Source of the DNA: a virus
Lineage: Duplodnaviria > Heunggongvirae > Uroviricota > Caudoviricetes
Reading direction: 5' to 3' (one strand)
Virus record (IMG/VR): IMGVR_UViG_3300045988_003641
Location: 1 to 64,000 of that record
DNA: 64,000 nucleotides
Part shown: positions 6,998 to 60,036 of the stretch, in pieces
How the letters are laid out: each line of letters begins with the position of its first letter
How positions within the stretch are numbered: position 1 is the first letter of the stretch
Notes under the pieces: model-generated
What the model saw: only the letters and a program-made list of their open reading frames with translations
Told to the model about the DNA's origin: nothing
The model's database searches: none
Made by a program: the position numbers and the translations under genes

Positions 6998-7032
6998 TAC
7001 TAAATAAAACCCTTAAACTAGGAGATTCAAAA

Positions 7033-7281
7033 ATGGCAACTATCCGCGCTACTGTCAATGCCTATGGCTGTTATACTCTGGACGTTAAATTCGATATTGG
7101 TGGAACTGATGAGTGTTTTTCATTAGTGAAGACAGTTATCAAACAAGTTATTCCAGATTATAACCCTACTGATGACTTCTGGAAAGATGCTGTAAAAGAG
7201 GCATTAAACGACGAGCATCACTATCATTACTGGGGTGACTTGATTGTTTCCCTGTACTACAATAAACAAGGTTACAACTAA
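7033..7281 (+). CDS. hypothetical early protein
   Basis: ORF 82 aa behind cassette leader; last gene of plus-strand early block. Confidence 0.6.
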   Translation: MATIRATVNAYGCYTLDVKFDIGGTDECFSLVKTVIKQVIPDYNPTDDFWKDAVKEALNDEHHYHYWGDLIVSLYYNKQGYN

Positions 7282-7320
7282 TCGACGCAACGGGGCTAAA
7301 TAGCCCCAGATACCTGAACA

Positions 7321-7370
7321 GCCCCTATTTAGTATGGATTCGATAGAATCTATCTCATAGGGGCTTTTTT
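7321..7370 (+). terminator. rho-independent terminator closing the early plus-strand block
   Basis: GCCCCTAT...ATAGGGGC stem followed by TTTTTT. Confidence 0.6.
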
Positions 7371-8963
7371 ACGTCTATCGAATCCTTATACAATCTCTTT
7401 CCATCACCTTTCCAGAATCTATCTCATACCTTAAAAGCAATAACTCTATAGTCTACTCTATAACCTCTTATCAAATCAACTTAAATAAAAGCCCATAACC
7501 CGAAAGGGAAGGGCAACCGTTTAAACGCTCTATAAAGCTCTATAACAGCCTTATCAACCTAACTTAAGGGATTGCATTAACTCACCCTTAAAAGCTCTTT
7601 ACAGGGCTTTATAGAGGCTTAAAAGAATCTTATAAGGGTGTAAGCTTTATTACCTCGTTAGCTATCTTGTGAACTACTAAAAAGGGCTTGTTAGTGTCTT
7701 AAAAGTATGTTATAGGGGCTTAAAAGTTACGTAAAAGAGGCTATAAAGTTACGTAAATACTAGCCCCCTTAACATTTTCTTAACATTTTCTTAACAATTT
7801 CTTAACAATCCCTACATAGTTATTCTTTTAAGGCACTTGTTAGCAACTTGTTAGCACCTTGTTAAATCTCTGTTAATACCACGTAAAAGCCTTGTAAGAG
7901 TCTTTGACATAGCCTTAAAAGCTCCTGTAAAGCCCTATAAAGAGTTATCTGTACAGTTGGGGTGTAACTACTAGGAAGAGACTTAAAAGAGCTTATAAAG
8001 AGCTATAGAGAGCTTTTAAGAGGTATGTTTAGAGAATCACTAAGAAAGGAAAGGAACGATAAGGAAGAAGTAGTGACCATGTTAACAGCTTGTTAAAAAG
8101 ATTAAATACTTGTTAGAAACTTGTTAATTATCTTAACAAGATAACTCTTAAAAATTAACTTGTTAGCTCTTGTTAGTCATCTGTTAAGATTCTGTAAAGC
8201 CTATGTATCAACTGTTAAGAAACTGTTAAGCCCTTGTTAGTTCTGTTAAGAATCTGTTAAGACCTTTGAAGAGTTGTTAAGAGCTTGAGAGAGCTGTTAA
8301 GAGATTGTTAAGGATATTTTAAAATTTTGCAAAGTACTTGTAAGGGAGCTGTTAAGGGCTACCAAGCAGATATACATCTTCTACAGATATTTTTCAGTTC
8401 CTTCAAAGACCCTAAAAAATGACTTGATAGTCCTATTTTATAAAAATTTTAAAATTCTGAATAATTACCTAGACAGTCTTTTAAAAATACAGGTAATAAC
8501 AGGCTTATAAGATACCTTGTTAGTACCGTGTTAGACCTTGTGAGATAAGGTCTGTAAAGATATTCCTGTTAAGTTTGTTAAAACAGTCTATATAGAGGCT
8601 TAGTAATACCTAGTGAACACCTATAGAGGGTATCATAGGTAACATAGGGATTAAGAGGTGTATAGGAGCTTCTAAGAGGGTATAGAGAGATGGTTAAGGT
8701 GATTGTATAGGTTGTTTAGAAGGCTTGTTAGAAGAGTGTTTAGAAGGGCTATTTAGAAGGGTTATACAGAGGGCTATTAAGACCACTAGATAGTTACTAA
8801 GATACTATATAGTACTATATAACTATATAGAGAGTAAGATTAAGAAGGTTGTTAAGAAGGATAGATATTTTATTCACATATGATGGTGACCAAGAGGTTG
8901 GGACAACCGATAAAATTTTATAAAAATTAAAAAGCCCCCAATTAAGGAGGCTCTTAAGATATT
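7371..8963. repeat. 1.6 kb ORF-free tract with dense short repeats: 30 or more TGTTA(A/G) copies in both orientations, plus TTAGAAGG x4, ACTATATA x3, AAGTTACGTAAA x2
   Basis: No ORF of 60 aa or more on either strand; motif spacing 10-12 bp in the 8100-8360 core. Confidence 0.7.
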
Positions 8964-9587
8964 TTAAATCAGTGTTTCCAGAACTGTCTTCAGTGATGAC
9001 TTGGTTGTCTGATAAAAATGAGTAAATCCATTGTTGTTATCGAATATCTGCATCATGATATCATCACCCTTGATTGGGTAAACTCGGATATCATAGTGAA
9101 AACCATTAAAGACACAAGAGCCATTACAGAATGCACTAAAGTCATCAACTGAGATATACTCTTCATGTCCTGTGATTTTTATACAAACGCCTTTACTCGG
9201 TCTCTTAGGGTTGATATCTTCCATCACAGACATACTCTGTCCACCAAGAGATACCATAGTGACCACTTTACGGTTCTTCTGTTTAAAGTACATCTTAACT
9301 TTCTGCAAAGTGTCTTCATAGAATGGATAAGACTTCTCTACAAAGATTCCTTCAAGTGGCTCTTTACCATTTTCAACTTCTCGGTTATGCCGTACTGCAA
9401 AGATAATTTGTTCGAACCAGTCAAGATTTTCTTCGGAGAGTGCTTCCCGAACATCCTTCCAGTCAAGTACTAAGTAGTTACCTTCAACTTCTTTTAAGTT
9501 ATCTTTTTCCATATCTATCACACCATTATCGTAAAACTTGATATTCTGGTACTGCGAATTTATTACTATTATTCTTGATGAGGTCAT
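8964..9587 (-). CDS. hypothetical protein
   Basis: ORF 207 aa; alternative start at 9512 would remove 62-nt overlap with upstream gene. Confidence 0.5.
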   Translation of the reverse strand: MTSSRIIVINSQYQNIKFYDNGVIDMEKDNLKEVEGNYLVLDWKDVREALSEENLDWFEQIIFAVRHNREVENGKEPLEGIFVEKSYPFYEDTLQKVKMYFKQKNRKVVTMVSLGGQSMSVMEDINPKRPSKGVCIKITGHEEYISVDDFSAFCNGSCVFNGFHYDIRVYPIKGDDIMMQIFDNNNGFTHFYQTTKSSLKTVLETLI

Positions 9588-24659: not shown

Positions 24660-24860
24660 ATGAGTGAGACCGTTTACAAAGAACTTTATGAAGCTAATAA
24701 AAAGCTAGAATTTATGCAGAATACTATCATGGCAATTGCAGACAGATTGTCTGTAGCAACAGGTATTGATATTAAAGAAGCATCTATGGATGCACTTCTT
24801 GATGCTGTTGATGCAAAGTTCGAAGTTAAGAAAGAAGAGACTGCTACAGACTCTGAATAA
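24660..24860 (+). CDS. hypothetical protein upstream of terminase
   Basis: ORF 66 aa. Confidence 0.45.
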   Translation: MSETVYKELYEANKKLEFMQNTIMAIADRLSVATGIDIKEASMDALLDAVDAKFEVKKEETATDSE

Positions 24861-24881
24861 TTCTATTTGCGGAGGTGCTTA

Positions 24882-26483
24882 ATGGACTTAAATGCTGTTA
24901 AGCAGAAGCGAGTGGAAGATGTTAGGAAAGTCCTAGCTGGAGAGTTGGGGCTTTCTGATGAAGTAAAAGAAATTATTAAATCATTCGGTAAAGACCCCTC
25001 TAAATTCCTTCCAACTCAAATTCTGACTTTATTAAGATACACACCAGACCAAGTTCGCCTTATCTTTAAATTGATGACTGATAAGAACTATGTAGCCCCT
25101 CAGCCGGGTTCTCAAGAGGTCTTTTTAAATACTAATGCTGACTTGGTACTCTATGGTGGTGCTGCTGGTGCTGGTAAGACTGCCGCATTGTTAATGGACT
25201 CTTTAAGATTTATTGAAGACCCTAACTATAATGCTGTATATTTCCGTCGAAATACAACACAGTTACAAGGTGGTTTATGGCCTGCTGCAAAGAAACTATT
25301 TGGTAAGTTTGGTGGAATTCCTCACGAGCAGAAGATGACTATCACATTCCCTTCTGGGGCAACTATCAAGTTTACCTATCTAGAACTTGAAAAGCACGCT
25401 GAAGGTCATCAGGGTATTGAATACTCAGCTATTTACTTTGACGAAGGCACACACTTCTCTGCTTCACAGATTTCATACCTACAAACCCGTCTACGTTCTG
25501 GTGCTGAAGGCGATTCATACATGAAGATTTCCATGAACCCAGACAGAGACCACTTTATTTACGATTGGGTAGAGCCATTCTTAGATGAAGAAGGCTACCC
25601 AGACCCTGAAAAATGTGGTCGTATTCGTTGGTATGTGATGAACGATGGTGTGATGGTTTCTGATTGGGAGAGAGACAAGATTCTTGAAATGTTCCCCCTT
25701 GAGATTCCTCAAACATACACCTTTATTTCTGGTACGATTGATGATAACCCAATCCTTGACTTCTTAGAGCCTAAGTACCGTGGTAAGTTGGAAAACAACA
25801 CTCCTGTAAACGTTGCAAGACTTCGTTTCGGTAACTGGAAGGCTCGTGCAGAAGGTTCAAACTATTGGCAAAGACAATGGTGTGAAATTGTTGATTCACT
25901 CCCAGAAGATGTATTTGATGTTAGAGCATGGGACTTAGCAGCAACTTTACCATCTGAGATTAACCCTAATCCAGACTGGACAGCAGGTGTTAAGATGGGT
26001 AAATCTAAAAAAGACGGTTGCTATTATATCATTGATGTAGTAAGATTTAGAGATAGACCCTCTGGAGTCGAAACACAAATTAATTTGACTGCTGAAAGTG
26101 ACGGTAAGCGAACTGGTATTTTTATCCCTCAAGACCCAGGCGCTGCTGGTAAATCCTACGCAACATCCCTCATCAGGAAACTTGCCGAGAAAGGTTATCG
26201 AGCAAGAGCCAAACCAACAAATAAAGATAAAGTTACCCGCTTTGCGGGATTTTCTGCTGCTTCTGAAGCTGGACTTGTAAAAGTCTTGAGAGGTAGTTGG
26301 AATGAAGCTTACTTTCAAGAACTTGAAGGCTTTTGTGGTGACGGTAAAACTAAAGATGACCAAGTGGATGCTACCAGTGATGCTTTCAACAGTCTTAACG
26401 AAGTTAAATTATTCAAGCCACCATCAATGGGTGCTCACACAGATTTAGTGAGAGGAAACCCATATGAGGGGCTTAGACGTTGA
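24882..26483 (+). CDS. terminase large subunit
   Basis: Walker A VLYGGAAGAGKTAA; about 530 aa; start moved to ATG 24882 behind GGAGGTG. Confidence 0.85.
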   Translation: MDLNAVKQKRVEDVRKVLAGELGLSDEVKEIIKSFGKDPSKFLPTQILTLLRYTPDQVRLIFKLMTDKNYVAPQPGSQEVFLNTNADLVLYGGAAGAGKTAALLMDSLRFIEDPNYNAVYFRRNTTQLQGGLWPAAKKLFGKFGGIPHEQKMTITFPSGATIKFTYLELEKHAEGHQGIEYSAIYFDEGTHFSASQISYLQTRLRSGAEGDSYMKISMNPDRDHFIYDWVEPFLDEEGYPDPEKCGRIRWYVMNDGVMVSDWERDKILEMFPLEIPQTYTFISGTIDDNPILDFLEPKYRGKLENNTPVNVARLRFGNWKARAEGSNYWQRQWCEIVDSLPEDVFDVRAWDLAATLPSEINPNPDWTAGVKMGKSKKDGCYYIIDVVRFRDRPSGVETQINLTAESDGKRTGIFIPQDPGAAGKSYATSLIRKLAEKGYRARAKPTNKDKVTRFAGFSAASEAGLVKVLRGSWNEAYFQELEGFCGDGKTKDDQVDATSDAFNSLNEVKLFKPPSMGAHTDLVRGNPYEGLRR

Positions 26484-45429: not shown

Positions 45430-47778
45430 ATGGCAGATTACAAATTGAGTGAGCTAAACTCAATCGACACAATCCGTTCAGATGACCTTCTTCATGTCAG
45501 AGTTAAAAAGAGACCTAAAATGCTGGGTGATGAAGACCGTCGAATGACCTATCAAGATTTCTTAGCATCTTTTAAGCTTGAAAGATTTGTTCAGATTGCT
45601 GGTAGCACTATGACGGGTGACTTAGGAATTGTTAAGCTACTTTACGGTGGCAAGGCTGTATTCGACCCCACAGGCTCTTCTGAGATTACTGTTGGTGATA
45701 TTTTAAAGACTTTTAAAATCAACGCAAACGACCTTAAACTAACTATTGCAGACGCTTCAAGGTCGGCAACTGTTTATCATACTTTGAATAAGCCAAGCCC
45801 TAATGAACTTGGGATGAGAACTAATGAAGAGAATGACGCAAGGTATGCAAGACTAGCCGTGAATAATACCTTTAGAGGTACTCAAGCTATCCTCTCTGAC
45901 AATGGAGCGCTCATTATTAAAAATATCACTCAAGGTGCTCCACTCTATCTTCGTGGTCAAGATGCAGATGGTACTAACAGATGGTATCTAGGTAATGATA
46001 ATAGGGGTACAAATAATCTTGTATTGAAGAATGTAAAGTCTGACGTTTCAATTGCTATTTTAGAGAATTTGGTGAAAGTCAACAGAACTCTTCAAATTGC
46101 TGGCCAAGTTCAGCCTTCAAGTTTTGCTAACTTAGATGCTAGGTATTTTACCCAGACAGCAGCTAATCAGAGATTTGCGCAGTTAGCTGGTAATAACACT
46201 TTTACTGGTACTAACACTTTCTCTAATTTTGTTGCTAAGAAGAATGCTGAAGCCATCACTCTGCGAAATGTGGACACTGCTCCCTCTTTATATATCCGAG
46301 CAAGAAAGTCAGATGGGAATTATAAGTGGTATATTGGTAATGACGGTGATGAGAACATTTTAAAAATCTATAACTATCTAACAGAAACACAAGTCTCACT
46401 AGGTAACACTATTGCCATGAGCAAAACAGTTCGAATTGATGGTCAAGTACAACCTTCTGATTGGACTAACATTGATTCTAGATATATTCCGGCAGCCACT
46501 TTGAGTAATCTCCCTAAACTTAATGTTGCTAATACTTTCACAAATGTGCAGACTATTGTATCAGATAATGAAGGTTTAGTATTAAGGAGCTTAACACAGG
46601 GACAGCCACAATATATCCGTGGTGTTGATACTGCGAATGTATCTAGGTGGTGGCTGGGCGTAGGAACTGCTAATTCTAACGTGGTAACCTTGAGCAACAG
46701 CTTTTCAGGCACTCAAATTTCCCTAGAGCCAACATTGGTTAGTATGAATAAGAATCTGTATATTAATGGGCAGGTTCAACCAAAAAATTGGTCTAACTTA
46801 GATGCTAGATACTTTGTTAAGACTCAGTTATTAAATCAATCTTTGATGACTGCATCTGTAGATAATCTTGAAAACCCTTCAGCATTTAATCTTGGGTATT
46901 CAGGTTTTGTCAGAAACAACAATGTGACTAGTGGTCTGAAAGAGTTGGCAATTCATGTTGCTCACTCTAGTAAGACTGCTGCACACGCAAGGGGTATCTC
47001 TTTTGTATACGGTTCAAACGGTTTGGCAACATTCACCTATGCCTATGACAAAAATGGTGACTATGCCGGAGAGGCACAGATTTACACAACTGATTTTAAA
47101 CCAACCCCTTCAGAGATTGGTGCATATACTAAAGCAGAAACTGACCAGAAATTTGCAACAGCAATTAGTGACTCTACAGACCTTAATAAAATCTATCCAG
47201 TAGGTATTGTAACTTGGTTTAACAGTGATGTTGACCCTAATACAGCACTACCTGGGTTAACTTGGACGTATCTTAACAATGGTGTTGGTAGGACTATCAG
47301 GATTGCAGCAGCAGATGGTTCAGATGTTGCTACAACAGGTGGTTCAGACTCTGTGGTGTTATCTGTTGGTAACTTACCGTCACACACCCATAGTTTCTCT
47401 GCTACCACTTCATCTTTTGATTATGGTACGAAGAACACTAATAGTACTGGTGCTCACACCCACTCAGTTAGTGGTACTGCTGCATCTGCTGGGCAACACG
47501 CACACAGAATTTCACAGGGTGACAACGCTAACGTTCCATCAGGTAGAGTTGCATCTTCGAACTCTGCTCAGACCCATGTTGGTTGGACTGAAAATGATGG
47601 TGCTCACACCCACTCAGTTAGTGGTACTGCTGCATCTGCTGGTGGACATGCTCACTCTGTAGGTATTGGTGCTCACAGCCACACAGTTAGTGGTAACACT
47701 GGTGGTACAGGCTCTGGTTCAGCATTTAGTGTTACTAACCAGTTCTACAAGTTAATGGCTTGGGTAAGAACTGCTTAA
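45430..47778 (+). CDS. long tail fiber protein with His-rich (HxH repeat) C-terminal domain
   Basis: 782 aa; C-terminus shares FDYGTK, AHTHSVSGTAASAG x2, GAHSHTVSG with 44211-45383, ends WVRTA. Confidence 0.7.
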   Translation: MADYKLSELNSIDTIRSDDLLHVRVKKRPKMLGDEDRRMTYQDFLASFKLERFVQIAGSTMTGDLGIVKLLYGGKAVFDPTGSSEITVGDILKTFKINANDLKLTIADASRSATVYHTLNKPSPNELGMRTNEENDARYARLAVNNTFRGTQAILSDNGALIIKNITQGAPLYLRGQDADGTNRWYLGNDNRGTNNLVLKNVKSDVSIAILENLVKVNRTLQIAGQVQPSSFANLDARYFTQTAANQRFAQLAGNNTFTGTNTFSNFVAKKNAEAITLRNVDTAPSLYIRARKSDGNYKWYIGNDGDENILKIYNYLTETQVSLGNTIAMSKTVRIDGQVQPSDWTNIDSRYIPAATLSNLPKLNVANTFTNVQTIVSDNEGLVLRSLTQGQPQYIRGVDTANVSRWWLGVGTANSNVVTLSNSFSGTQISLEPTLVSMNKNLYINGQVQPKNWSNLDARYFVKTQLLNQSLMTASVDNLENPSAFNLGYSGFVRNNNVTSGLKELAIHVAHSSKTAAHARGISFVYGSNGLATFTYAYDKNGDYAGEAQIYTTDFKPTPSEIGAYTKAETDQKFATAISDSTDLNKIYPVGIVTWFNSDVDPNTALPGLTWTYLNNGVGRTIRIAAADGSDVATTGGSDSVVLSVGNLPSHTHSFSATTSSFDYGTKNTNSTGAHTHSVSGTAASAGQHAHRISQGDNANVPSGRVASSNSAQTHVGWTENDGAHTHSVSGTAASAGGHAHSVGIGAHSHTVSGNTGGTGSGSAFSVTNQFYKLMAWVRTA

Positions 47779-47857
47779 TCCCTTGTTAACTGATTGTTAA
47801 GATGGTGTTAATATTCTTTATGGGTATTCTCACCATCTTGGCTGATGAGGTGATTAA

Positions 47858-51054: not shown

Positions 51055-51384
51055 TTAATCTGCCAACCTTAAATTAAAATTAACACCAAATTTTTCACAT
51101 ACTTCCAACATATACTCAAGGGAGACATTACCAGTGAGATGAATTATGTTGGACACACGAGCCTGAGAGATACCACAAATTTTAGCAACTTGCTCTTGAG
51201 AAAGACCTCTGGATTTAATCTCTCTCTTAAAACGATGTGCAACGAAGTCTCTCATTTCGTCTACATCCATTGGACAAATATAACTCTCCATTTCAGCCTC
51301 TCTATCAGCCTCCCAATCATCTTGTGGGGCATAAGGGTCAAAAACCTCATTCATCTTTCTTCTTCCGTTTGCGTGAAGTATCAA
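51055..51384 (-). CDS. helix-turn-helix DNA-binding protein (XRE-like)
   Basis: LSQEQVAKICGISQARVSNI HTH segment; alternative start 51354. Confidence 0.65.
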   Translation of the reverse strand: MILHANGRRKMNEVFDPYAPQDDWEADREAEMESYICPMDVDEMRDFVAHRFKREIKSRGLSQEQVAKICGISQARVSNIIHLTGNVSLEYMLEVCEKFGVNFNLRLAD

Positions 51385-56144: not shown

Positions 56145-56660
56145 TCAACTTAGTTTTGCAAACTCTCCGTGGAGTTTTACAGCAGCTTCACAGTAAGCTT
56201 TATGGGCTTCTTCTTCCGTTGTGTATGTTCCTATATGTATAGTCTTACCATTATGGTTAATCTGGGCTACCCACTTACCAGACTTGCTTCTACTTGTGCC
56301 TTTTAAGTTTTTTGATGTTCTAGGTTGTCTCCTATTAGACATGTTCTGTTCTTTTGTGGCCTCTCTTAAATTGTTCCAAGCGTTATTCAAGCCATCTCCA
56401 TCTTTGTGGTCAATGTGTTTATCAGGCCACTTGCCTGTCATCCAGAACCAAGCAATTCGGTGATTACCTGTCCTGTATCCTAAAATCTGTGTGTGCATAT
56501 ACACACCAGACCTTGTGCGCTTAATTGCTCCGGCTTGGCTTCCAATAACCACCCTACTACTATGTGGAGGTCTACCAATCCATGTTAAGACCCCTGTTTC
56601 GGGGTCATAATCTAACCAAGACTTTAACTGTTCATGTGTGAATCCACAATCTCTCATCAA
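56145..56660 (-). CDS. HNH homing endonuclease with AP2-like DNA-binding domain
   Basis: HIDHKDGDGLNNAWNNL HNH core; C-terminal GKWVAQINHNGKTIHIGTYTTEEEAHKAY. Confidence 0.75.
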   Translation of the reverse strand: MMRDCGFTHEQLKSWLDYDPETGVLTWIGRPPHSSRVVIGSQAGAIKRTRSGVYMHTQILGYRTGNHRIAWFWMTGKWPDKHIDHKDGDGLNNAWNNLREATKEQNMSNRRQPRTSKNLKGTSRSKSGKWVAQINHNGKTIHIGTYTTEEEAHKAYCEAAVKLHGEFAKLS

Positions 56661-59386
56661 TGTACCTCATACCAGCTCTTACCAACCTTACCTGTGCCAG
56701 TTACAAGCGTCTCACTCTTCAAACCTAAATTCTTAGATGCCTGACCATACATCCAGTCAGTTATGGCTTTAACTTCTTGAGTCATACTTTCTGGGCATTC
56801 CCAACTGTTTTCATCGTGGTATGCCAGCAAAAGCCTAGCACCGATTGCTGGTTTTCGTCCATTTAATTTTGTCAATCCTTCTTCACATGCTCTTCTACAA
56901 GCAAGATTAATTGCCTCATTTTGAATCTGAGCCTCTGAACCCATGAGCAAATAATTCAATAACTTATGTGGAGATTTACACCACAACCAAGCTCCAGCAA
57001 CCTTTACAAAACCACCTTTAGAGATTGCAGCAGTCTTACCAAATACCTCTTCAAGTGCCTTTTTAGTTGCTTTGTAGTCAGCTTCCAAGTCATCTAGCAG
57101 CTTTTTAATTTTAGGCAAACGAATAAAGTAAGTCTGTTTAGTCAGCGCACCTTCCTGAGTAGTTGCAGCTTTAATCGTCTTAGCAAACTTCTCATCACCT
57201 GCACCGAACAGCAGTGCATAGATACCATTCTTAGCTTTCTTACGACCCTTGCTAATCTCATGAAGAAGATTCTCATCCTGAGTAGCTCGACAAGTCAAGA
57301 TGTCCTGCTCATCGTTCAAGTTAAAGTAAATACTGTTCAGTGTATGTGCATCAGTCCCTGAATAGACAACGTACAGGTCATTCTCAGAGTCATAGCGAAG
57401 GTACTTATCAATCTCTGGGTTGAGGTACTCATCAAAGTGTTTACAGTAATAGCGTCCATCTTCTTGACGAATGAACTCAATTTCTTCTTTACCTTGCGTT
57501 ACCGCTTTGGTGAAGTCTTTATCACCCATAAAGTTACAAAGAAGAACTAGCTGGGCTGAGTTCATGTCTACAGAGACAACGTTAGTACCTTCCTCACAAA
57601 TCCACACTGCCCTCATTGGTTCCCCATAGACAGCAGCACCAGACGGTACGTTTACAATACCATACTGTGTCATACGTCCAGTTGAAGTACCAAACACCAT
57701 TGCACCAGCACTAAGGCGACCATCAGGACGAATCTGGTTCAACCAACCTTTTTCATCATCCTTTGAGTTCTCAATAGTTCTGCGTCGGTGCATCAAAGTG
57801 TAGTATTTAGCAATCTTCTGTCCAAGCTCACCTTCAATCGTATCGTAAGATGATTCAGTAAGTTTTGGTGAAGTACGGATTAAGCAAGGCTCAAGCAAAT
57901 CTGTGTACTTCTTCACAGACCAGTTATGCTCAATGTACTGGACGCCTTCGTGTTCAACATAACTCAAACCACACCGCTCAACCATTTCCTGCCACTTAGG
58001 ATGCTTTGTAATCATCTTTTTATTGTCTTTGAAACGACAAACTTTGACAGGGCGACCATCAGAGTCTTTCTTGTAGTTCCAGTCATCTGGAATCCAACCA
58101 ACTGATTTCAAGTAGTCTTTAACAACTGCTACCTGAGTCATACGAGAAACTTCAAACTCAATTGGTGTATATGGTGCATCAATCAAACCTGTGTAGCGAC
58201 TTGACTCAAGTTCAAAGTGGTTAACAACGTGGCTGTTATAGTACTTCACAGTTTTGACTGTTTTTACTGGCTTCCAGTCTTTGCATTTCTTACCAATCTT
58301 TGCGTTCAACTCATTGCAAATTGCACGAGCATCCTTCATTGCTACAAAGCCTTCCTTGTACTCTTCACCAGTTACAGAGTTGGTTGGTGTATAGCAATTC
58401 CTTTTTTCAATGTTAAAAATCTTTGTAGTTGGCTTACCAAATGGTTTGATTTCGTATGTCTGCATCTCGCCATTACGTACCTGCTGACGATACTTTGTCT
58501 TAGGGTACTTGGTAATTCTTTTCAGTCCATCTGCATGACCAAATGTTTCAACATACTCATTCCAAGCTTTTGCAAACTCTTCTCCAGTGACTTTACCTTT
58601 GGTCTTAATAGTTGGAGGTAGATGTGGTTCAACCTCTGAAGCAAGCTCATTAGTCAACTTGTCAAGTTCCTTTACATGGAACTCCATAAGCTCTTTATCA
58701 GCTTTCCAACCATTGATAGCTTGTTGACTCATCCAGAAAGATGTTTCTTTAGCTCGCATGTAGGTTTCATAAGTGTCTATGCCACACTTCTTAAGCTTGA
58801 GATACTCATTATCAAGTGCCCGTTTAGTTTTGGCGTTAATACGGATATCTTCTACAACACGAGTGAAGATTTCTGCATTCCACACACCCCAATGTTCAAT
58901 CTCTGGTTTACGAACACCAACACGAGCACCCCATGCAGCCAAGCCATGAGCACCTTTATAACCCTTTGGAGTTGGTCTATCCATCCACTGAACACGAGAC
59001 TGGATAAGAGAATCCTGAAAGAAATTACTCCACGGCTTACACTTTGGATTATCAAAGTTCCATAAATCCGGTGCAATGTGATTGAAAACCCACCAGTCAT
59101 AACCTAGACCATTATGAATGCAAAGACGTTTTGCCTTTAACGCAAACTCAATACCTTCACGTAAGCCACCCTTAATGTACTTGGTATACTTGTGACCGAG
59201 GATAGGCTCATCTGTAAAGACCCATACAGGTGGCTCTTCATCGTCAGATTTATAGTCTGCGAAAGCCATTACGTGCACTTTAGTGAACTCAAGGAGTAAA
59301 CCATCAGTTTCTGTATCACCAACTAAATGTAAGTTTTTAAAATCTACGTTTTCCATTTTTACTCCCTCTAAAATCATTAACCTCAT
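56657..59386 (-). CDS. DNA polymerase, family A, with 3'-5' exonuclease domain
   Basis: Exo I VGDTETDGL; motif A VVSVDMNSAQLV; motif B KNGIYALLFGAG; motif C YHDE; 909 aa. Confidence 0.85.
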   Translation of the reverse strand: MRLMILEGVKMENVDFKNLHLVGDTETDGLLLEFTKVHVMAFADYKSDDEEPPVWVFTDEPILGHKYTKYIKGGLREGIEFALKAKRLCIHNGLGYDWWVFNHIAPDLWNFDNPKCKPWSNFFQDSLIQSRVQWMDRPTPKGYKGAHGLAAWGARVGVRKPEIEHWGVWNAEIFTRVVEDIRINAKTKRALDNEYLKLKKCGIDTYETYMRAKETSFWMSQQAINGWKADKELMEFHVKELDKLTNELASEVEPHLPPTIKTKGKVTGEEFAKAWNEYVETFGHADGLKRITKYPKTKYRQQVRNGEMQTYEIKPFGKPTTKIFNIEKRNCYTPTNSVTGEEYKEGFVAMKDARAICNELNAKIGKKCKDWKPVKTVKTVKYYNSHVVNHFELESSRYTGLIDAPYTPIEFEVSRMTQVAVVKDYLKSVGWIPDDWNYKKDSDGRPVKVCRFKDNKKMITKHPKWQEMVERCGLSYVEHEGVQYIEHNWSVKKYTDLLEPCLIRTSPKLTESSYDTIEGELGQKIAKYYTLMHRRRTIENSKDDEKGWLNQIRPDGRLSAGAMVFGTSTGRMTQYGIVNVPSGAAVYGEPMRAVWICEEGTNVVSVDMNSAQLVLLCNFMGDKDFTKAVTQGKEEIEFIRQEDGRYYCKHFDEYLNPEIDKYLRYDSENDLYVVYSGTDAHTLNSIYFNLNDEQDILTCRATQDENLLHEISKGRKKAKNGIYALLFGAGDEKFAKTIKAATTQEGALTKQTYFIRLPKIKKLLDDLEADYKATKKALEEVFGKTAAISKGGFVKVAGAWLWCKSPHKLLNYLLMGSEAQIQNEAINLACRRACEEGLTKLNGRKPAIGARLLLAYHDENSWECPESMTQEVKAITDWMYGQASKNLGLKSETLVTGTGKVGKSWYEVH

Positions 59387-59414
59387 ACATTACTGCAAAA
59401 AATTATAAAAAGCA

Positions 59415-59446
59415 AGTTGACAATGCACTTGACAAGGTGTTAATCT
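59415..59446 (+). promoter_or_regulatory. conserved tandem-TTGACA element with candidate promoter
   Basis: GTTGACAATGCACTTGACAAGGTG; TTGACA-18-TAATCT. Confidence 0.45.
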
Positions 59447-59613
59447 TTGCGAAGTGGGTTTTTACTTAAAAGGTTACTTAACAGTTTAACTATACAGATA
59501 CTTTAAATCTCTTAAAAGATTATTTAATAGCTTTTAAAAAGCTTTAAAGTATAACGTATAGAATACGTTAAGATAAAAGATTAAAACTTAATAGTTACTT
59601 AAAAGAGGCTTAC

Positions 59614-60036
59614 ATGCAGAAAATGTTTGTTCACCCAGACATAGCTGACTTTGTTAGAGCTTTGCAGAAGTTGGAAGAACTTGACATTGCTGCTCAACGG
59701 GAATATGCTCACCATCACAGGAGAATGGTTGATATACAACATGAAATAGAGTTGTCTGAAAACTATGAAGATGACTTAAAATGCTCTGTATTTGAGCATA
59801 TGAAAGATGTTGCTACAGCAAGACGTAAAGCTAAAGACACAGTTGCTTTACTGGATTCTCTTAAAAAGAGGTTGCAAAGTGGTACAGACCTGTGTAATCT
59901 AGCGTCACTGATTAACGATGTTGAAACTTCTTGGGATAGGCACTATTATCCACGTTCTGAAAAGACACTTGACTTTTCTTCATCAGAAAACTTAAAATGT
60001 TCTAGAAAGAAACTTAACCAACTGAGAGAGAAATAA
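59614..60036 (+). CDS. hypothetical protein
   Basis: ORF 140 aa. Confidence 0.55.
   Translation: MQKMFVHPDIADFVRALQKLEELDIAAQREYAHHHRRMVDIQHEIELSENYEDDLKCSVFEHMKDVATARRKAKDTVALLDSLKKRLQSGTDLCNLASLINDVETSWDRHYYPRSEKTLDFSSSENLKCSRKKLNQLREK

Follow-up and report, generated by a model that had tools for sequence, protein, structure and literature searches.

It is poorly understood how phages with short direct terminal repeats (DTRs) recognise the junction between genomes in a concatemer, place two cuts separated by hundreds of bases and copy the repeat. This holds even for T7, where the classical scheme proposes staggered cuts followed by duplication of the repeat through strand displacement. 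The T7 junction, which we checked directly, comprises a 160-bp DTR with three copies of CCTAAAG and, beside it, 12 copies of YYTAAAG (Y, C or T) at a spacing of about 13 bp between positions 175 and 355. Short DTRs have also been published for the Felix O1-type phages and are annotated in several of their records; these phages are widely used in the typing, biocontrol and therapy of Salmonella and E. coli, and can now be engineered. Here we analyse the homologous region of the IMG/VR virus record IMGVR_UViG_3300045988_003641, positions 1 to 64,000 of which form the 64-kb window under study, in which a tract free of open reading frames (ORFs) carries a dense array of the hexamer TGTTA(A/G), written TGTTAR below. 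The array is a real lattice, phased at 11 bp, concentrated in the DTR, repeated in mirror image at both DTR boundaries and conserved among relatives. We consider it probable, at roughly 60%, that this lattice is a phased landing site for the packaging (terminase) machinery and fixes both DTR cut sites, a role that we regard as putative. The motif lattice, its mirror-image boundary copies and a conserved core near one boundary appear to be undescribed in the literature searched, the coverage of which was incomplete; the DTR itself and its sizes have been reported.

The genome ends

The tract matches 257 phage records, nearly all of them named Felix O1-type phages of enterobacteria (91-93% identity for the best), and every record inspected among the 257 belongs to the Ounavirinae. 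By sequence similarity the window is assigned to Felixounavirus (Felix O1-like myoviruses, Ounavirinae). Most of the matching records leave the tract unannotated, or mark it only as 'repeat_region' or with the flanking terminators. Those opened at determined termini, which include Pr103Blw, Ro111lw, CRP22, NBSal004, BPS15Q2, GE_vB_7A, ECP2307, HP1 and SLAM_phiST56, begin at the homologue of 7763/7774 and end at that of 8363. Because these records start and end at homologous positions of the tract, the latter is read as the genome-end region, and by the same homology the ORF-free tract is the predicted concatemer junction, at which the two termini of the linear virion genome come together.

Within the junction, positions 7763-8363 (601 bp) are the predicted short DTR, which aligns end to end, within a few bases, with the mapped DTRs of relatives (Pr103Blw, Ro111lw, HP1, M7, SPARTY and UAB_Phi87). 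Exact repeats with homologous boundaries are found at both record ends in five relatives, namely Pr103Blw (581 bp, annotated as DTRs), Ro111lw (613 bp), Citrobacter phage HP1 (570 bp), Erwinia phage M7 (444 bp) and Hafnia phage SPARTY (439 bp); the published PhageTerm sizes are 581 bp (PMC8303462) and 613 bp (PMC6454146). The left boundary reads cta/GCCCCCTTAACA and the right one GTTAAGGGCTACC/AAGCAGATATACA (the slash marking the boundary); both are conserved in 10 genomes, and in Kolesnikvirus they can still be recognised. The window has one copy of the repeat, which is what a concatemer or a collapsed assembly would show, and the genes on its two sides are homologous to the last right-arm and the first left-arm genes of Pr103Blw. 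The genes of each arm run toward the tract and stop at a terminator.

Experimentally mapped ends are available for UAB_Phi87, in which Bal31 digestion and run-off sequencing of virion DNA gave a 608-bp DTR (PMC4837284), printed as AACATTTTCTTAACA...GTTAAGGGCTACCAA (PMC4837284 Fig. S1). The UAB_Phi87 segment between PhageTerm-type boundaries measures 614 bp; the experimental repeat begins at AACA, 8 nt inside the left boundary, and extends 2 nt beyond the right one, which gives 608 bp. The terminal SpeI fragments predicted for this phage are 2747 and 4435 bp, compared with the reported Bal31-sensitive fragments of 2819 and 4322 bp, an agreement to about 0.1 kb, and the residual difference probably reflects sequence versions of 87,603 and 87,669 bp. 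The published genome is the longer of these and includes the 608-bp DTR (PMC4837284), while the GenBank/RefSeq entry is the shorter, with a single copy. On the deposited sequence the reported SpeI fragments imply a repeat of 573 bp, where the boundaries in Fig. S1 give 608 bp (PMC4837284).

Many records of the genus are opened at arbitrary points, such as rIIA or the tRNA cluster, instead of at mapped termini. In practical terms, these genomes are best opened at the equivalent of window position 7763, and engineering within the tract risks harming packaging.

A phased hexamer lattice

The initial annotation had reported 30 or more copies of (C/T)TGTTA(A/G) in both orientations and called for a comparison with shuffled sequence. 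The count holds for TGTTAR, with 33 copies in the tract (27 on the plus and six on the minus strand), and falls to 29 if the leading C or T is required. In 1000 dinucleotide-preserving shuffles the mean was 3.2 (standard deviation 1.7, maximum 10), which confirms the enrichment, and the density in the tract is 19.6 copies per kb compared with 1.85 per kb in the remaining window. A spacing of about one helical turn, noted at the outset, is likewise upheld: of the 32 distances from one copy to the next, 13 are exactly 11 bp, most others being 9-10 or about 20-22 bp, and Tandem Repeats Finder assigns the arrays a period of 11.

The tract is built of three parts, a right-arm spacer, the DTR and a left-arm spacer, each with its own repeat vocabulary, and 26 of the 33 TGTTAR copies lie in the DTR. 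At the left DTR edge (7763-7807, minus strand) GCCCCC is followed by four copies of TTAACA (7769, 7780, 7791 and 7802) at exact 11-bp spacing, the first beginning 6 nt inside the boundary. The right edge (8350-8376) carries the last TGTTAA (8350-8355), which ends 8 nt inside the boundary, then GGGCTACC, the DTR end at 8363 and the conserved AAGCAGATATACA (8364-8376). The right-edge sequence TGTTAAGGGCTA is the reverse complement of the left-edge TAGCCC(CC)TTAACA. The two boundaries thus share one sequence in inverted orientation, and virion DNA would therefore begin nearly alike when read inward from either end. The left DTR edge also has an extra 11-bp TTAACA unit in this phage (7774-7784), with four copies as opposed to three in the 11 relatives compared.

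Between the edges, four forward TGTTAR copies at 11-bp spacing (7838-7876, plus strand) are followed by a central segment without the hexamer (7908-8026), made of CTTAAAAG, CTGTAAAG and CTATAAAG units in both orientations, which forms an imperfect dyad with 11-nt perfect arms (CTTAAAAGCTC and GAGCTTTTAAG). Six further TGTTAR copies at 8080-8140 include GTTAAC (8081-8086) and the perfect palindrome CTTGTTAAttatcTTAACAAG (8120-8140), a block conserved in Felixounavirus, Suspvirus and Mooglevirus. The main forward array (8161-8311, plus strand) holds 11 copies in register, with gaps of 9-11, 20 and 31 bp, and is the best conserved of the arrays across genera. It is followed by the most conserved block, the 22-bp core GATATTTTAAAATTTTGCAAAG (8313-8334), which contains the 10-bp palindrome ATTTTAAAAT and lies 29 nt inside the right DTR boundary.

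Outside the tract, the only other cluster of at least three copies in the window is a TGTTAA trio just past the tail-fibre gene, which the initial annotation had pointed out and which is real (47784, 47795 and 47806, 11 bp apart). The trio (47784-47811) sits between the tail-fibre gene, which ends at 47778, and a small ORF followed by a holin-like gene. Its first copy is TTGACT in Pr103Blw, where this produces a promoter-like TTGACT-17-TAATAT upstream of the small ORF and the holin gene; taken as a promoter, the trio of the window matches at 8 of 12 positions only and was not called by the promoter scan. The trio may be a promoter, a site for the protein that binds the DTR lattice, or a product of chance.

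Conservation across the Ounavirinae

Twelve genomes of four genera (Felixounavirus, Suspvirus, Mooglevirus and Kolesnikvirus) carry 24-33 TGTTAR copies each, compared with about three expected. The more distant Pectobacterium phage Arno18 has 18 copies, compared with 2.7 expected, and the same core block; here too the genes on either side converge, and the gap of 1.46 kb between them is free of ORFs. The arrays therefore persist in five Ounavirinae lineages, with the hexamer enriched 6- to 10-fold, while the spacers diverge. The core is nearly invariant in the 12 aligned genomes, and in Erwinia M7 it lies 31 nt from the right boundary. Seven forward copies of the array at 8161-8311, near the right edge, are kept in at least 10 of the 11 genomes compared. 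Alignment columns of the DTR that fall in a motif score higher for conservation than those in the spacers, at 0.90 against 0.70 in Suspvirus and Mooglevirus and at 0.69 against 0.34 in Kolesnikvirus.

Five indel events in the DTR exceed 1 nt, and each of them measures 11 or 22 nt; the flanks show many indel lengths. It is because the indels come in these steps that the DTR-homologous lengths of relatives range from 569 to 614 bp. Across the complete Pr103Blw genome, clusters of at least three copies are confined to the two DTR copies and one mixed-orientation trio inside a coding sequence (CDS).

A putative packaging platform

We propose that the lattice would be recognised by the small terminase subunit, or by a specificity factor equivalent to it, and would serve as the platform on which this protein assembles and works together with the large subunit TerL (24867-26483). 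Sites spaced by 11 bp would lie on one and the same side of the helix, an arrangement suited to the subunits of an oligomeric DNA-binding protein such as small terminase, and the bound subunits would wrap or stiffen the DTR and so place the nuclease. The cuts would fall at 7762/7763 on the top strand and at 8363/8364 on the bottom strand. The mirror-image boundary copies would allow one recognition and cutting complex to act in opposite orientation on the two strands, and the roughly 600 bp that separate the staggered cuts would then be duplicated by strand-displacement synthesis, leaving a copy of the repeat at both genome ends.

As in terminase recognition sites, an iterated short motif lies next to the predicted cleavage positions. 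TerL itself belongs to phrog_979 and has Terminase_6N/6C domains (T4-type); its assignment to the clade of DTR-generating terminases rests on a published tree (PMC4837284). The initial annotation had interpreted the repeats as an array of cooperative protein-binding sites and listed a packaging site among three options; the phased arrays of short sites stand, and that the tract forms the genome ends had been missed.

Several points weigh against this proposal. The termini of the window's own phage are assigned by homology to relatives only. No small terminase subunit could be recognised, and the single-sequence AlphaFold2 model of a 66-aa ORF just upstream of TerL (24660-24860) is a bare two-helix hairpin. 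The better conservation of motif columns over spacer columns in the DTR is inflated somewhat by the tendency of the aligner to pair repeated motifs. Indels of 11 and 22 nt can also come from slippage between 11-bp units, without selection on phase. The inverted repeat at the boundaries is clear in Felixounavirus, Suspvirus and Mooglevirus; the ends of Kolesnikvirus share only TTAG and an inward GTTAAC about 20 nt from each end. Lastly, to our knowledge the function of the T7 heptamer arrays was never established, so that the analogy with T7 proves no packaging role.

Two proteins were considered as the binding partner and set aside. The 66-aa ORF belongs to phrog_4397 (unknown function) without a Pfam hit, and a tblastn search with it reaches no further than Mooglevirus and one Yersinia phage; as a small terminase it was not retained, given the lack of family annotation, the helical-hairpin model and this narrow range. 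The HTH_3 protein at 51055-51384, suggested as a binder by the initial annotation, has a range of homologues confined to Felixounavirus, Suspvirus and Mooglevirus; none was detected in Kolesnikvirus or Arno18, although both retain the arrays.

The tract offers an explicit candidate signal for a short-DTR phage: a hexamer in 11-bp register, mirror-image copies on the cut sites and a 22-bp core 29 nt from one cut. The lattice also provides probes for the recognition protein and edits with which the staggered-nick model can be addressed.

Alternative readings

A lattice at the genome ends could instead organise those ends through a binder other than terminase, either a DNA-binding protein conserved among enterobacteria or a phage protein that pairs them or shields them from attack, for instance by RecBCD; we regard this as doubtful. 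It would amount to a 'phage telomere' in which the 26 phased sites of each repeat, 52 per virion distributed over both ends, are bound by an Ounavirinae-wide protein or by a hijacked host winged-helix regulator, an idea that we hold equally tentatively. One end presumably enters the cell first, and a telomere protein would cap, pair or tether the ends after injection, with roles in end protection, in circular or concatemer synapsis, or in the start of replication. The 11-bp unit CTGTTAAGAAA resembles the Pho-box unit CTGTCATAAAA of winged-helix response regulators. The motif is kept in phages of Escherichia, Salmonella, Citrobacter, Erwinia, Hafnia and Pectobacterium, which fits a host protein and a phage protein equally well, and in a PhageMaP study on the relative Bas63 no RecBCD inhibitor was apparent, a result that we count in favour of this reading. 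Nothing links the motif to a particular host protein, however, the Pho-box likeness being no more than a resemblance, and the mirror-image copies on both cut sites are more simply explained by the cutting machinery.

An origin of replication, the second option of the initial annotation to be considered here, is a distinctly unlikely reading of the tract. The 11-bp units would be initiator iterons and the adjacent AT-rich DNA an unwinding element, and many phased direct repeats do lie beside AT-rich stretches (8082-8181 and 8382-8481, 24-25% GC) in a transcriptionally quiet spacer without strong promoters or an Rfam match. Some phage origins are situated near a genome end, as is the secondary origin phiOL of T7 at position 405. 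The arrays, however, end exactly at the DTR boundaries, which is explained by a function at the terminus and not by an origin, and the repeat core measures 6-8 bp within an 11-bp unit, where iterons typically span 17-22 bp. DnaA, IHF, Chi and GATC sites were sought in the tract and none was conserved or present: the sole DnaA-box-like site (TTATTCACA, 8870) is not conserved, and there is no match to the IHF consensus WATCAANNNNTTR. Among the flanking genes there are no hits to initiator-like families, and the neighbouring ORFs lack family annotation. The GC skew, proposed at the outset as a check, follows the direction of transcription and hence tracks gene orientation. None of these features lends specific support to an origin in the tract, and the AT-richest divergent spacer is found elsewhere, beside the DNA polymerase gene.

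This spacer, the AT-richest spot of the window (59387-59613, about 75% AT), separates the DNA polymerase gene (56657-59386, minus strand) from 59614-60036 (plus strand) by 227 bp, and the cumulative GC skew turns there. As a place for early promoters or for the start of replication, this spacer is a candidate of a more conventional kind than the terminal tract.

Neutral expansion of the repeats, in which 11-bp units would have accrued by slippage and unequal recombination without any sequence-specific function, is disfavoured and in our view improbable. Copy number does vary by whole 11-bp units among close relatives (569-614 bp), as such a process would predict. Single copies nevertheless hold their position across genera in which spacer identity is down to about 34%, each of the five lineages is enriched in this hexamer, and the boundary copies keep a fixed orientation at both edges.

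That the tract codes for small proteins or a structured non-coding RNA, the outcome that the initial annotation had named as counting against its binding-site array, is highly improbable: small hypothetical CDSs are annotated there in some GenBank records (for example Phi87_32-34 and M7 gp001-002), but both ORFs of at least 30 aa are interrupted by stop codons in relatives (the longest ORF in 12 tracts being 56 aa), Rfam returned nothing for the tract at E < 0.1 (best E = 0.16), sliding-window folding z-scores are unremarkable except for one dyad (as single-stranded DNA z -1.4, not significant), and terminators point at the tract from both sides.

Two other candidates were set aside. Promoters in the tract amount to weak 9-of-12 matches, most of which arise because TTAACA resembles the -35 hexamer TTGACA. 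A region of first-step transfer or injection stop of the T5 type was dropped since the window belongs, by its similarities, to Felixounavirus.

Limits of the tract and other observations

The ORF-free tract measures 1,682 bp (7282-8963), between the stop of the last plus-strand ORF upstream at 7281 and the end of the first minus-strand ORF downstream at 8964. The absence of ORFs of 60 aa or more, first reported for 7371-8963, is borne out over this longer interval, the longest ORFs being 31 aa (8327-8422, plus strand) and 30 aa (8694-8786, minus strand), as is the convergence of the flanking gene blocks; the earlier start at 7371 corresponds to the tract less the terminator hairpins at 7292-7370. 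These terminator-like hairpins, read from the sequence, end the plus-strand gene block of the right arm and consist of GGGGCT..AGCCCC at 7292-7307 and AGCCCCTAT..ATAGGGGCT at 7320-7365, the latter followed by a T-run; a rho-independent terminator is annotated at the homologous position in phage ASO1A. On the opposite side, a terminator-like hairpin with a T-run (8930-8955, minus strand) ends the left-arm gene block, at a place where terminators are annotated in ASO1A and Mordin.

Hypothetical CDSs have been placed inside the terminal non-coding tract of UAB_Phi87 (1183-1970), Erwinia M7 (636-845) and several other records. As they are not conserved as ORFs among relatives, these annotations are probably spurious.

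The non-coding spacer just outside the DTR, at the right end of the virion genome (7371-7762), is rich in 7-8-mers of the CTTAAAAG, CTNTAAAG and TATAGAG types and contains two copies of AAGTTACGTAAA (7724 and 7746). Across the whole tract, CTNTAAAG/CTTAAAAG occurs 17 times compared with 0.5 expected, and TATAGAG 10 times compared with 0.3. The left-end spacer, inward of the left DTR copy (8364-8929), includes the AT-rich stretch at 8382-8481 (25% GC), TGTTAR pairs at 8518/8529 and 8567/8576, four copies of TTAGAAG (8716-8759) and three of ACTATATA (8804, 8814 and 8822, together 8804-8829). The ACTATATA and AAGTTACGTAAA repeats are as first described; a fourfold TTAGAAGG at a spacing of about 15 bp is present too, but as three exact copies and one TTAGAAGA, 12-13 bp apart.

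The tetranucleotide GATC does not occur in the 64-kb window, the tract included, although its base composition predicts 226 copies. Depletion is no more than mild for other 4-bp palindromes (for example CTAG, 109 copies; GGCC, 35 of 92), and the absence of GATC suggests strong selection against targeting of the Dam/MutH or the Sau3AI/DpnII type.

At least seven small genes of the right arm carry a conserved leader of about 20 nt, (A/T)AATCCTAAACTGGAGATTC(A/T)AAAATG, directly upstream of the start codon (261, 1215, 1595, 3456, 3964, 4254 and 6086, plus strand), with a weaker copy at 7012. It matches the 26-bp repeat of Citrobacter phage Mordin that resembles a 'start-associated sequence' (PMC4611695).

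Comparison with known systems

The iteron origins of lambda (ori) and of plasmids (oriV) share with the tract a set of phased direct repeats beside AT-rich DNA. The unit of the tract is much shorter, there is neither a conserved DnaA box nor a neighbouring initiator gene, and the arrays are delimited by the DTR boundaries.

Lambda cosB and SPP1 pacL/pacR are composed of short small-terminase sites by the cut, at which bending or wrapping of the DNA positions the large subunit; lambda has three R sites together with an IHF site and 12-nt cohesive ends, and SPP1 packages by the headful. In the tract, too, several short sites adjoin the predicted cut site. It differs in having no IHF consensus, no recognisable small terminase gene and two cut sites about 600 bp apart.

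In the pac site of P1, studied by Sternberg and Coulby and by Skorupski et al., the hexamer TGATCA/G is reportedly clustered on both sides of the region that terminase cleaves. P1 pac has seven copies in 162 bp and serves headful packaging with permuted ends, and it is controlled through methylation by Dam of the GATC in its hexamer. The A/G wobble at the last position of the hexamer is common to both systems (TGTTAA/G here), whereas the DTR of the tract has 26 copies in 601 bp, fixed ends and, throughout the window, no GATC.

The junction of T7 and T3 provides parallels across unrelated families: the Felix O1-type phages are myoviruses of the Ounavirinae with a T4-type TerL, and their DTR has about four times the length. 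In the tract the dominant motif is TGTTAR and lies mostly inside the DTR rather than beside it, with mirror-image copies at both boundaries; no promoters point outward from the end, and the genes on both sides run toward the tract. Common to both are a short exact DTR, unique and non-permuted ends, one repeat copy per concatemer junction, and arrays of short motifs, at intervals of about one helical turn, within the repeat and next to it. The likeness extends to the second motif family of the tract, CTTAAAAG/CTNTAAAG, which with its 17 copies resembles the T7 heptamer.

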